This document shows positions 18,634 through 20,017 of a stretch of 24,000 nt of DNA, in pieces (the stretch's first letter is position 1; the number at the start of each line of letters is the position of its first letter). The notes below the pieces were generated by a model. It was not told the DNA's origin and did no database searches. It was given only the letters and a program-made list of their open reading frames with translations. The stretch comes from an uncultured archaeon (lineage in GTDB: Archaea > Halobacteriota > Methanosarcinia > Methanosarcinales > Methanoperedenaceae), in NCBI GenBank assembly GCA_902386255.1, contig CABMII010000138.1:15660-39659 (forward strand), written 5' to 3'. A program made the translations under genes and the position numbers.

Positions 18634-19137
18634 TTACTTCCTCCTCAACAGGTTTGACCCGTCGGTACTGACTATGTCTTCCCCCTTTTCCCCTATAGTA
18701 ACGAATTGCTCTGTATTCATGTCATAATCCTTTTGAAGCGGGTGCCCAATCCATCCATCTGGCAGCAGTATCCTTACAAGATTAGGATGACCTGTGAATC
18801 TAATCCCCACAAGGTCATACGTTTCACGCTCAAGCCAGTCAGCCCCTTTCCATAGGGATGTAAGCGAGTCCACTTCGGGTTTATCGTGGTCTGCAATAAC
18901 TTTCAATACGAGATTCTGCTTTTTGTTGTAAGAATAAAAGTTATATACGACTTCAAAATGGTCTTTGTAATCAGTGCCGGTAATCACAGAAAGGTGGTCA
19001 AAACCCATTTCTTTTACTTTCCCGGCGACGTTTAAAAGCTCCTCCTTTTTGATTACAGCCATCGGCTTATTCCCCTGCATGCCTGTACTGACAACTGCGG
19101 CAGGCAGCTTCTGTTTTAACTCGTCAGTAGCGCTCAT
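18634..19137 (-). CDS. fpoC: F420H2 dehydrogenase subunit C (NuoC-type)
   Basis: 167 aa. The NuoC signature is SLTSLWKGADWLERETYDLVGIRFTGHPNLVRILLPD. Confidence 0.9.
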   Translation of the reverse strand: MSATDELKQKLPAAVVSTGMQGNKPMAVIKKEELLNVAGKVKEMGFDHLSVITGTDYKDHFEVVYNFYSYNKKQNLVLKVIADHDKPEVDSLTSLWKGADWLERETYDLVGIRFTGHPNLVRILLPDGWIGHPLQKDYDMNTEQFVTIGEKGEDIVSTDGSNLLRRK

Positions 19138-19402
19138 AAAGCGACACCTCGCTTTATGCGGTATCCGCGTAAACCGATACCCCGGTTTACGTGGTGTTCA
19201 AGTATGCTTTGCATACTTGTCGTTTGAAAGCCGAAACTTCGGCTTGCGCAGTGTTGGGGTATGCGCAGCATACCCCTCGTTTGATAAAACTTTCCTAAAG
19301 TTTTTTGATAAACCTTTCTTAAAGGTTTACGTATGGCTGAGCCGTATGTATCTGCGAAGTAAAGCGGCGCCACGGTTTTTGATGAAACTTTCCTAAAGTT
19401 TT
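19138..19402 (-). repeat. Intercistronic hairpin-array element, long copy (about 9 hairpins) between fpoB and fpoC
   Basis: Back-to-back inverted repeats in plus coordinates:
- 19136-19157 (8 bp stem, loop ACACCT)
- 19168-19191 (9 bp stem)
- 19199-19219 (CAAGTATGC-TTT-GCATACTTG)
- 19228-19245 (AAGCCGA-AACT-TCGGCTT)
- 19256-19276 (GGGGTATGC-GCA-GCATACCCC)
- 19286-19304 (AAAACTTT-CCT-AAAGTTTT)
- 19309-19329 (TAAACCTTT-CTT-AAAGGTTTA)
- 19328-19350 (imperfect)
- 19385-19401 (AAACTTT-CCT-AAAGTTT)

The track's 90-aa ORF (19134..19406) is the frame that runs through this array. Confidence 0.85.
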
Positions 19403-20017
19403 TCATTTATTAAGCCCCCATTTTGCGCCGTATCCTTCGTTCTTGATTTTTTCCCTTAGCTGGATAATGCCGTATAAAAATGCCTCAGGCCGCGGGGGGC
19501 AGCCCGGGATATAGACATCCACAGGTATAATCAAATCCACCCCTTTTAAGACTGCGTAGGACTCAATATACGGCCCGCCTGTTGACGCACAGCTTCCTAC
19601 TGCGATTACCCATTTGGGGTCGGGCATCATTTCATAAAGTTGTTTTACCCTTGGAGCCATCTTTTTTGTAACAGTCCCGGCTACAAACATGAGGTCAGAC
19701 TGTCGCGGGCTTGCCCTGAAAATCTCCATACCGAATCGTGCAATATCATGGTGAGCCATAGCCGTCCCCATCATTTCAATCGCGCAGCAGGCAAGACCCG
19801 AAGTGACCGGCCAGAGGGAACTCAGTCGCGCCCAGTTGAAAACCTGGTCTATCGTTGAAAAGAGAATCATTCCTTCCCTTTCCCTTGCTGCCAGGACGGT
19901 ATTGATAAGCCCCGTATCTTCCAGTTTTTCAAGCGCTGTCACTGGCTTCTTTTTGGCGGGTTTGATTTTTGTGGTATCAATGGTTACTGGATCCACTCTA
20001 AAGCCTCCTTCCTCCAT
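19403..20017 (-). CDS. fpoB: F420H2 dehydrogenase subunit B (NuoB-type, [4Fe-4S] N2-like)
   Basis: 204 aa. NuoB signatures: [20 protein letters not shown] and [10 protein letters not shown]. The 5' end overlaps the fpoA 3' end by 34 nt. Confidence 0.92.

Follow-up and report, generated by a model that had tools for sequence, protein, structure and literature searches.

A hairpin array between fpoB and fpoC of a Methanoperedenaceae archaeon is probably an expanded copy of a dispersed, translationally coupled repeat element

The subject of this report is the spacer between fpoB and fpoC in a stretch of DNA from an uncultured archaeon of the family Methanoperedenaceae (assembly GCA_902386255.1, contig CABMII010000138.1, positions 15,660 to 39,659). 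The whole stretch, 24 kb long, is referred to below as the window, and position 1 is its first letter. The spacer is likely to be an expanded copy of a dispersed mosaic palindromic repeat element of the genus Methanoperedens, which would be mobile and would be tolerated by way of preserved translational coupling. The element has its own open reading frame (ORF) and its own ribosome-binding site, which probably let the interrupted gene still be translated, and it is itself probably selfish DNA. By analogy, it is best read as an archaeal, hairpin-mosaic and Shine–Dalgarno (SD)-bearing counterpart of the coupled-ORF repeats called MIRUs.

All fpo genes of the window are on the minus strand, and the gap between fpoB and fpoC measures 265 nt (19138-19402). 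An exhaustive search of the window for perfect hairpins, with stems of at least 7 bp and loops of 3-6 nt, located eight of them in this gap and its borders, and two imperfect hairpins were also identified (Table 1). A hairpin array in the spacer had been described in a first-pass annotation made from the sequence alone; the array is real and far beyond chance, and the hairpin coordinates and families given at that time match the exhaustive search. Perfect hairpins cluster at only two places in the window, namely at 19135-19401 and, as a group of three, at 16290-16368, and there are only three hairpins in the remaining 23.6 kb. Folding of the array as RNA, which had been suggested as a check, indicated strong structure: −106 kcal/mol for the sense strand (z = −7.95) and −113 kcal/mol for the antisense strand (z = −9.51) in comparison with dinucleotide shuffles, none of which folded as well on either strand. 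The description does need to be amended in one respect, since it held that there was no direct-repeat periodicity and some direct repeats are present, in 57-nt and 24-nt registers. Together with an ATGA at either end, the array forms a stop-free frame of 90 codons, which has its ATG at 19406-19404 and its TGA at 19136-19134.

The second cluster is a minimal copy of the same element, in the fpoH-fpoI spacer, which the first-pass annotation had missed. The spacer is 76 nt long, and the copy including both ATGAs occupies 16289-16372. It consists of hairpin C (AAAACTTT-nnn-AAAGTTTT), hairpin B (GGGTATGC-nnn-GCATACCC) and hairpin A (CATAAAGCGA-GGTG-TCGCTTTATG). The 30 nt on the A side are identical between the fpoH-fpoI and fpoB-fpoC copies, and the 26 nt on the C side have 1-2 differences. 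The small copy encodes an open frame of 27 codons, MKNFKKVLSKEGYAKHTLYRIKRGVAL, which has its first four and last nine residues in common with the 90-aa frame. The basic unit is therefore seen to be about 80 nt long, with hairpins C-B-A in that order, ATGA on both borders, and a constant orientation relative to the gene. Terminal inverted repeats are absent: the 5' end, AAAACTTTAGG..., differs from the reverse complement of the 3' end, ATAAAGCGAC.... In Table 1 and below, L-numbers denote the loci and contigs examined, of which L030 and L055 are contigs of Methanoperedens metagenome-assembled genomes, and L048 and L013 are from M. nitroreducens. The window is about 90% identical to L030 and L055.

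Table 1. Features of the fpoB-fpoC array, of the fpoH-fpoI copy and of the adjoining fpo genes (window coordinates)
Feature	Position	Strand	Description
Whole fpoB-fpoC element	19134-19406	−	Array of 10 hairpin modules forming a 90-codon stop-free frame
5' ATGA	19403-19406	−	TGA is the fpoB stop; ATG is the start of the element frame
5'-terminal hairpin C	19385-19401	−	AAACTTT-AGG-AAAGTTT; perfect; weak as RNA; directly after the frame ATG
Two imperfect modules	19329-19378	−	Hairpins at about 19329-19350 and at 19360-19378; encode the common block TVAPLYFADTYGSAIR; the L030 variant here is TVASVYTAHTYGFAIR
Type C' hairpin module	19309-19329	−	TAAACCTTT-AAG-AAAGGTTTA; perfect
81-nt (27-codon) block	19228-19308	−	One C, one B and one F hairpin; perfect hairpins at 19228-19245, 19256-19276 and 19286-19304; TATCAAA linkers at the borders; absent from the L030 array
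Type B hairpin module	19199-19219	−	CAAGTATGC-AAA-GCATACTTG; perfect; compensatory difference from the L030 orthologue (CAG..CTG)
Internal hairpin module G	19168-19191	−	CGTAAACCG-GGGTAT-CGGTTTACG; perfect
Terminal hairpin A	19135-19158	−	CATAAAGCGA-GGTG-TCGCTTTATG; perfect; 10 bp; RNA dG about −12 kcal/mol
SD-like hexamer GAGGTG	19145-19150	−	Top of the hairpin A stem, and loop; 7 nt 5' of the fpoC ATG
3' ATGA	19134-19137	−	TGA is the stop of the element frame; ATG is the fpoC start
fpoB	19403-20017	−	
fpoC	18634-19137	−	Complex1_30kDa (Pfam); host gene, start codon regenerated by the element
Minimal copy, fpoH-fpoI	16289-16372	−	Hairpins C 16350-16368, B 16320-16340 and A 16290-16313; ATGA at both ends
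GAGGTG hexamer of the minimal copy	16300-16305	−	SD
fpoI	15876-16292	−	Fer4 domains (Pfam); host gene of the minimal copy

The occurrence of the element beyond the operon was then analyzed. A scan for hairpin A with the loop left free, using one genome per species, identified at least 111 loci, distributed over at least 19 assemblies, M. nitroreducens ANME-2d and Mnv1 among them; of the matches listed, nearly all belong to Candidatus Methanoperedens/Methanoperedenaceae. A lack of other genomic copies, along with an unstructured spacer in all relatives, had been named as something that would refute a new element, and the dispersed copies contradict such a lack. Scanning metagenome contigs with the 5' end of the element gave at least 120 contigs, and in this set there is a subfamily with a variant terminal hairpin A' (AAAGGGGCGTAACCCTTTATGA). 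The commonest array has three hairpins (about 80 nt; 49 of 113 arrays) and the largest has nine, and at least eight families of hairpin are mixed within the arrays. Possible family members outside Methanoperedens (Methanolobus L046, Bacillales L054 and a few bacterial matches) proved to be isolated terminator-like hairpins and were rejected, while viral contigs scanned for hairpin A plus ATGA gave no matches. An Rfam scan of 15800-20100 returned only a sub-threshold match to AS-pc01 (24.5 bits against a gathering score of 79, E = 0.35), and Pfam has no match for the 90-aa frame, for which an exact look-up of the product likewise gave no record. No description of the element family was found in the searchable literature, from whose coverage most subscription-journal papers are missing. 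Some of the copies are annotated as hypothetical proteins, with 34 database relatives. The earlier remark that the array was not recognized as a described class of element holds to the extent that Rfam, Pfam and the searchable literature contain no match, but the kind of element has a precedent in the MIRUs of mycobacteria (PMC12548453; PMC3184786).

The copies are concentrated at the starts of genes. We defined hairpin A as being in the sense orientation when its loop reads GGTG, GGTT or GGTA. On this definition, 86 of 96 sense-oriented A hairpins are followed by GA (that is, ...TTTATGA), and in 81 of the 96 the ATG after the hairpin opens an ORF of at least 60 aa, the proportion for random ATGA sites of these loci being 28%. 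Arrays typically have ATGAAAAACTTT at their 5' end, immediately 3' of a native SD. For 38 of 50 copies, the end of an upstream gene is no more than 40 nt away, and 24 of the 50 lie at an exact ATGA stop/start overlap, in which the TGA of the 5' ATGA is the upstream stop codon, as at fpoB/C and fpoH/I. The 80 gene-start copies fall into 33 gene families, and the second codon of the host gene begins with A (position +4) in 32 of these 33 independent families. Hosts confirmed by Pfam include the ribosomal proteins uL14, uS9 and eL19, the RNA polymerase subunits A'' (Rpb1 domain 5; also named Rpo1C) and F (Rpb4; also Rpo4), methionine aminopeptidase, DUF58, FpoC (Complex1_30kDa) and FpoI (Fer4). 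A device specific to the fpo operon is not supported, since no fewer than 33 unrelated gene families have the same element at their start codons. Because the insertions are at essential, highly expressed genes, they can persist only if expression survives.

Ten A hairpins lack a following GA. Three of them are at gene starts that read ATGT or ATGG, and in these the frame runs on for a few codons before its stop; five are central in a repeat of about 200 nt with inverted ends (TAGAACAC...ACGGATT); and two are intergenic. The repeats of about 200 nt surround a three-hairpin unit at L059 5356-5566, L079 2134-2344 and L063 956-1124, and further examples are at L039 (about 3313-3550) and L051 (about 1877-1985 with flanks). 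Their arms are inverted (TAGAACAC..ACGGATT / AATCCGTGTTCTA), and C[CT]GTG occurs on both sides of the unit. This repeat is possibly a composite MITE by which the unit reaches sites outside genes.

Metagenome contigs also have the element within a GT2 glycosyltransferase gene fragment, where it occupies an in-frame ATGA (..DWLSR-M-TEPFQ..) in the interior. The gene is thereby split: its N-terminal portion has a tail encoded by the element, and its C-terminal portion is restarted. One GT2 paralogue on the same contig is uninterrupted. These GT2-internal copies and the copies outside genes imply that the ends of the element need ATGA, and not the start codon itself. GT2 copies were seen in L117 (three copies) and in L118 (filled at 198, 1660 and 5730, empty at 3940), as well as in L136, L149, L163, L171, L178 and others. 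The GT2 fragments recur several times per contig, with toxin-antitoxin-like cargo between them (PIN, HEPN/nucleotidyltransferase and AlbA_2-like), a layout reminiscent of integrations in tandem, each of which has duplicated a portion of the target gene.

The element frame was examined by a frame-blind test, in which the 5' motif and the 3' ATGA were located independently of each other. Of 50 copies tested, 49 have a length that is a multiple of 3 and no in-frame stop; these elements come in 21 lengths between 42 and 300 nt, and up to 7 stops are present in each of the other two frames. The sole broken copy of this set, L035, has no attached gene. A second, independently ascertained set from metagenomes has an open multiple-of-3 frame in 47 of 53 copies, giving 96 of 103 for both sets together. 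Copies with an extra A at the 5' end (ATGAAAAAAC) also have a B stem that is longer by 1 bp (+2 nt), by which the frame is restored; after this +1/+2 change the hairpins are read in another frame (MKNFRKVLSKEGYA... versus MKKLYESFIKRRGM...). None of the copies was seen to form an in-frame N-terminal fusion to the host protein, the frame ending at the TGA that overlaps the host ATG. The 90-aa frame had been regarded beforehand as a possible difficulty for a structured element, should it prove to be constrained at the amino-acid level. The open frame is in fact a defining feature of the family, but the peptide is not conserved: the same hairpins are found in different frames, and the stems change in a compensatory manner.

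It is the stems that vary together. An alignment of 20 canonical copies has 99.6% of its cells paired; three pairs are changed on both sides (a number reached by 0 of 500 shuffles) and none is changed on one side only, and the variation is concentrated in loops and linkers. The outer triplets around the core GTATGC..GCATAC are AGG/CCT (22 times), GGG/CCC (17), CAG/CTG (17) and CAA/TTG (1), and 179 of 183 outer pairs around this core are Watson–Crick. Across 200 hairpins, with 1837 stem pairs, there are 20 mismatches, which include one G:T and four A:C. As judged from these sequences, it is pairing that is under constraint and not the identity of the peptide. The loops of the B hairpins occur in both flip states (GAA 19 and TTC 10, AAA 9 and TTT 6, TGC 6 and GCA 3), while the A and C loops are never flipped relative to the gene, which suggests that the internal palindromes undergo flip-flop inversion. 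The window B hairpins that were compared for flipping are 16320-16340 (loop GAA, sense) and 19256-19276. The absence of wobble pairs and the flipping of B loops would together indicate a constraint or process at the level of DNA rather than purely of RNA. Purely RNA-level selection as the sole explanation was rejected, given that G:U pairs are virtually absent.

Further features concern translation. In both window copies, hairpin A contains GAGGTG, which extends over the loop and the uppermost part of the stem, and the regenerated ATG follows 7 nt downstream. The native SDs of the fpo operon are GAGGTG or GGAGG, located 5-7 nt before the ATG, and at the empty uL14 site GAGGTG is 5 nt before the ATG. 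The 3' end of the 16S rRNA, which would carry the anti-SD, was not found in the loci examined; the 16S 3' end is conserved, and GAGGTG is identified as an SD on this basis and from the native SDs of the operon. The fpoC ATG is within the 3' arm of hairpin A, and the regenerated ATG pairs with CAT, within a stem of 10 bp whose energy is about −12 to −13 kcal/mol. The first hairpin, beside the frame's own ATG, has only −2.4 to −3.4 kcal/mol. Four features are thus consistent with coupling: initiation at the element ATG would be easy, the host start would be masked until the stem was opened, the SD would hold a terminating ribosome, and there is a −4-nt overlap. Termination-reinitiation at −4-nt overlaps has been demonstrated in an archaeon, where it falls off beyond about 30 nt (PMC12548453).

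Filled and empty sites could be compared at four loci, and they contradict the idea that all copies are orthologous with no differences in presence. At the start of uL14 (filled in L071 and L064, empty in L086, with flanks 96-98.7% identical), the empty site is GGCAAAATGAAAGGG and the filled site is GGCAAAATGA + 80 nt ending ATGA + AAGG, so that the target becomes ATGA + 80 nt + ATGA. At the start of eL19 (filled in L071 and L086, empty in L066 and L013), the empty-site sequence is CATATGACAGAT, and at fpoH-I (filled in the window and L055, empty in L030 and L048), it is TGATGGCC. The fourth locus is the 5' leader of a gene encoding 375 aa, where L030 is filled and the window (20438-20441) has ACGA and no element. 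The L030 insertion is a three-hairpin unit of the variant subfamily at 2240-2320 (A' CATAAAGGGGCGTAACCCTTTATG, B' GGGGATATgaaATATCCCC and C' AAACCTTTaggAAAGGTTT), approximately 45 nt upstream of the GTG start of this gene. At the filled fpoH-I site (window 16289-16292 and 16369-16375), FpoI begins MT (ATGACC) and fpoH ends ..CGA TGA; at the empty sites (L030 about 6180-6197, L048 about 549-551), FpoI begins MA (ATGGCC) and fpoH is one codon shorter (TTC TGA TG). The second codon of fpoI is ACC in the window and GCC where the site is empty, and the comparison of filled with empty sites implies that two flanking substitutions accompany this insertion. With the target repeated at the ends of the element, the data fit a duplication of 4 nt or of 2 nt as well as an oriented insertion without duplication in the manner of IS200/IS605.

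The element is also variable in place. Tandem units of the form ATGA-unit-ATGA-unit-ATGA-gene, representing re-insertion at a regenerated ATGA, are present in L038 and L066. Orthologous fpoB-fpoC junctions, whose alignment had been recommended previously, carry arrays that vary in size across four genomes, from 13 codons in M. nitroreducens (L048) to 27 in L043, 63 in L030 and 90 in the window. Compared to L030, the window has the extra 81-nt block, one swapped module variant and a compensatory change from CAG..CTG to CAA..TTG in a B stem. Fifteen copies of 84 nt, at mostly non-orthologous loci, have a mean identity of 93.6%, and the identity of orthologous flanks, for the same genomes, is 74-98%. 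In M. nitroreducens (L013, about 4100-4165, minus strand), the native SD region at the start of uL14 is GAGGTGGCTTTATGA, as against GAGGTGGCAAAATGA in L086 (5825-5845). The L013 region resembles the 3' half of hairpin A, as if it had been recombined through the common GAGGTG; L066, which is closely related to L013, has two full units at this site.

Some observations concern the opposite strand and the neighboring gene. C hairpins are followed by runs of T5-T6 on the plus strand at 19280-19305, 19304-19329 and 19378-19403 (AAAGTTTTTTGAT, AAAGTTTTTCAT), and these could cause termination of antisense transcription. The sense strand lacks such runs and no terminator-like sites were found on it within either window array, and a role of the arrays as sense-strand terminators was rejected for this reason. 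An antisense ORF of 140 aa (18974-19396, plus strand) was rejected as a gene, being the mirror image of the open frame through the palindromes. The listed fpoA and fpoB ORFs overlap by 34 nt (19984-20017); the listed fpoB start has no SD-like motif upstream, and the true start may accordingly be further downstream.

A unit thus occupies one ATGA, mostly at the start codon of a gene, and leaves ATGA at each of its ends. In the sense orientation it supplies an ATG followed by A-rich codons and a weak first hairpin, and the frame stays stop-free and a multiple of 3 nt whichever modules are added. GAGGTG is exposed on top of the last hairpin, and the TGA overlaps the regenerated ATG. We propose the following mechanism. 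Ribosomes that start at the original start site of the host, or that terminate on the upstream cistron, would translate through the hairpins, stop at ATGA and re-initiate on the host gene, and by this termination-reinitiation both host expression and operon coupling would survive the insertion. The perfect Watson–Crick palindromes may point to a DNA-level step in spread or maintenance, such as a hairpin or cruciform in single-stranded DNA. Arrays would grow and shrink in place by multiples of 3 nt, through recombination between the conserved linkers and exchange of modules with other copies. The first-pass annotation had suggested three possible roles for the spacer, as an RNA-level segmentation or stability element, a protein-binding platform or a non-autonomous mobile element; the last of these fits best, in view of the dispersed copies and the filled and empty sites, and the array is indeed a structured, repeated element and not a chance spacer.

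Several points weigh against this proposal. Several strong hairpins in a translated frame should slow ribosomes, and translation of the frame, like the need for coupling and the mode of movement, is something that we infer from the sequences. The empty sites are exactly ATGA in two of the four pairs and are ATGG or ACGA in the other two, and the exact boundaries of the element are ambiguous, since the duplication may be ATGA or GA, or the insertion may be between AT and GA. No transposase or other mobilizing gene was found in approximately 1 Mb of loci; a search for an autonomous partner, as C...A pairs more than 330 nt apart that enclose an ORF, found none, and a crude motif scan for IS200/RAYT (Y1) in all six-frame ORFs of the same DNA gave only 3 implausible matches. 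Insertion directed by ATGA alone predicts more intergenic than start-codon copies, and the numbers observed are about 10 and 81. This excess of start codons, roughly 8:1, means that ATGA targeting together with loss of harmful insertions is not a full explanation: either targeting would be more specific, or intergenic palindromes would be lost by fast imprecise deletion, which would be lethal at start codons. Seven copies away from gene starts are also stop-free in the same frame, from which it follows that openness of the frame is at least partly inherited from source copies and not selected at each locus. Finally, 6 of the 53 metagenome copies have a broken frame, and some of these are at gene starts, where the built-in SD might then suffice for independent initiation.

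Four other explanations were considered. In the first, the array is a host RNA element in the style of REP and BIME sequences, in which the hairpins serve as exonuclease barriers or processing sites on fpo mRNA and set the abundance of fpoAB relative to the downstream genes, translation of the frame being irrelevant. The hairpins are stable (a total minimum free energy of −106 kcal/mol, with several of −9 to −15 kcal/mol each), 38 of 50 copies are between co-oriented genes, and BIMEs affect mRNA stability (PMC3184786). However, copies are also located in 5' leaders and, at genes that are isolated or come first, between SD and ATG; close relatives have an unchanged operon with an empty site; and a single G:U among the 1837 stem pairs is unusual for selection on RNA alone. 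The multiple-of-3 length, open frame, ATGA ends and built-in SD are all left unexplained, and we consider this explanation unlikely.

A second possibility is that the element is not mobile, and that replication slippage or hairpin-templated synthesis has repeatedly produced arrays on the spot at ATGA junctions, with gene conversion homogenizing them. In-place growth by an 81-nt block bounded by linkers, the exchange of module variants between orthologues, the lack of a transposase among the loci and the seemingly recombined SD region of L013 are what would be expected from such a process. It does not account for the presence of whole 80-nt units, with the same ends each time, where genomes matching the flanks at 98% identity have an empty site, nor for the mean identity of 93.6% among copies at mostly unrelated loci, nor for tandem re-insertion at the regenerated ATGA, and it therefore appears improbable. 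The third possibility, that these are arrays of palindromic DNA binding sites (operators, or a platform for nucleoid proteins or gyrase) placed at gene starts by the host for joint control of transcription, seems to us slightly more improbable. As DNA, every module is a perfect palindrome such as dimeric proteins bind, the strict Watson–Crick pairing suggests reading at the DNA level, and BIMEs bind IHF and gyrase (PMC3184786); but at least eight unrelated palindrome families are freely mixed, both the presence of the element and the number of modules differ between near-identical genomes, the position is inside a transcribed and translated region, and the frame, SD and ATGA features are again unexplained. 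Very improbable, finally, is a family of small-protein genes in which basic peptides of 27-99 aa (MKNF...RIKRGVAL) are functional and the hairpins are a by-product of peptide modules, since, despite the open frame in 96 of 103 copies and the annotation of some copies as hypothetical proteins, with 34 database relatives, there is no match to a Pfam family, the same hairpins are read in different frames (MKNFRKVLSKEGYA... versus MKKLYESFIKRRGM...), B loops in both flip states alter the encoded residues, stem changes are compensatory at the nucleotide level, and lengths range from 13 to 99 aa at orthologous sites.

Returning to a mobile, translationally coupled repeat, we tentatively raise a more far-reaching version of it, which is possible although doubtful. 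On this version, the family would be an undescribed class of archaeal mobile element, namely a complete portable translational-coupling cassette in which a start codon and an expandable hairpin-coding frame are combined with an ATGA and with an SD that a hairpin displays, and which would home to start codons beyond mere recognition of ATGA and make the translation of essential genes depend on hairpin unwinding. Homing to start codons might be by recombination through SD-ATGA homology, or by an enzyme that recognizes hairpins in single-stranded DNA. If this were true, the hairpin that sequesters the start codon would be a genome-wide lever on translation (of ribosomal proteins, RNA polymerase and Fpo), for use by the cell or by the element.

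The closest known systems are the MIRUs, which were reportedly described by Supply et al. in 1997. MIRUs are small dispersed repeats of 40-100 bp, whose copy number varies per locus. These mycobacterial repeats are apparently mobile and insert at start codons and intercistronic junctions, with an internal ORF coupled at −4 nt, tetranucleotide direct repeats, and filled and empty sites (PMC12548453; PMC3184786); they exploit termination-reinitiation, and the coupling probably keeps the flanking genes expressed. The Methanoperedens element similarly is inserted at start codons or between cistrons in a co-oriented manner (81 of 96 opening an ORF of at least 60 aa, 24 of 50 at ATGA overlaps), has an internal ORF that overlaps both flanking genes at −4 nt, and has tetranucleotide direct repeats and empty sites (four pairs, two of them exactly ATGA). 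It differs in that MIRUs are bacterial, GC-rich, head-to-tail tandem repeats of one type of unit, whereas the Methanoperedens element is archaeal, is a mosaic of at least eight families of perfect hairpins joined by conserved linkers, forms true tandems only occasionally (L038, L066), and has polar terminal hairpins, the last of which carries an SD and a sequestered start codon. This comparison was made by description and not by sequence alignment, and a relationship in sequence is not expected.

REP and BIME sequences share with the Methanoperedens element the organization of short palindromic units into mosaic clusters joined by conserved linkers; they may also occur singly, are often inside operons and associated with recombination, and are thought to be non-autonomous and mobilized at the level of DNA hairpins. 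REPs, however, are extragenic and untranslated, typically lie after stop codons or between convergent genes, and have no start codon, frame or SD logic, whereas the element described here has an open frame and is located between SD and ATG or on stop/start overlaps. With REPs go a GTAG motif and RAYT transposases; neither was found here, the motif scan for the transposases covering about 1 Mb of loci. Rickettsia palindromic elements (RPE), which are said to have been described by Ogata et al. in 2000, are likewise palindromic selfish repeats that survive in or near coding sequence by way of an open reading frame. RPEs insert in frame and become part of the host protein, in contrast to the separate mini-cistron seen here, whose stop overlaps the host start and which splits a glycosyltransferase gene at an internal ATGA. 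The derivatives of IS200/IS605 (PATEs and REP-RAYT) have no terminal inverted repeats, have hairpins at both ends, and insert in an oriented fashion beside a specific tetranucleotide, so that an element 3' end repeating ATGA would give ATGA...ATGA without true duplication. The Methanoperedens pattern, with ATGA on the left, the element's own ATGA at the right end and a strict polarity, is compatible with this. The link to these is by analogy only: no Y1 transposase was found in the approximately 1 Mb of flanking DNA, and the hairpins abut the ends and are not subterminal. The lack of terminal inverted repeats also distinguishes the Methanoperedens element from MITEs. The REP2 repeats of Neisseria and the IR repeats of Borrelia also include promoters and function as 5' expression cassettes, and they are not described as ATGA-bounded coupled mini-ORFs or as hairpin mosaics (PMC3184786).

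The findings have some practical consequences. At element loci, gene callers can be expected to report spurious "hypothetical proteins" or to misplace start codons. The locus-specific size of the arrays could serve as a strain marker for Methanoperedens, comparable to MIRU-VNTR typing in M. tuberculosis, and the cassette could be used as an insulating coupling module in the engineering of methanogens or methanotrophs. For the organism itself, essential genes (uL14, uS9, RNA polymerase subunits and Fpo) tolerate 80-300 nt of strong hairpins between the ribosome-binding site and the start codon, and the condition for this tolerance is likely to be that the insert is itself a coupled mini-cistron. 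The element family thus provides a natural, replicated experiment on archaeal termination-reinitiation. It extends the principle of MIRUs to another domain of life, in a different, hairpin-mosaic build, and this suggests convergent evolution of translationally transparent selfish DNA.

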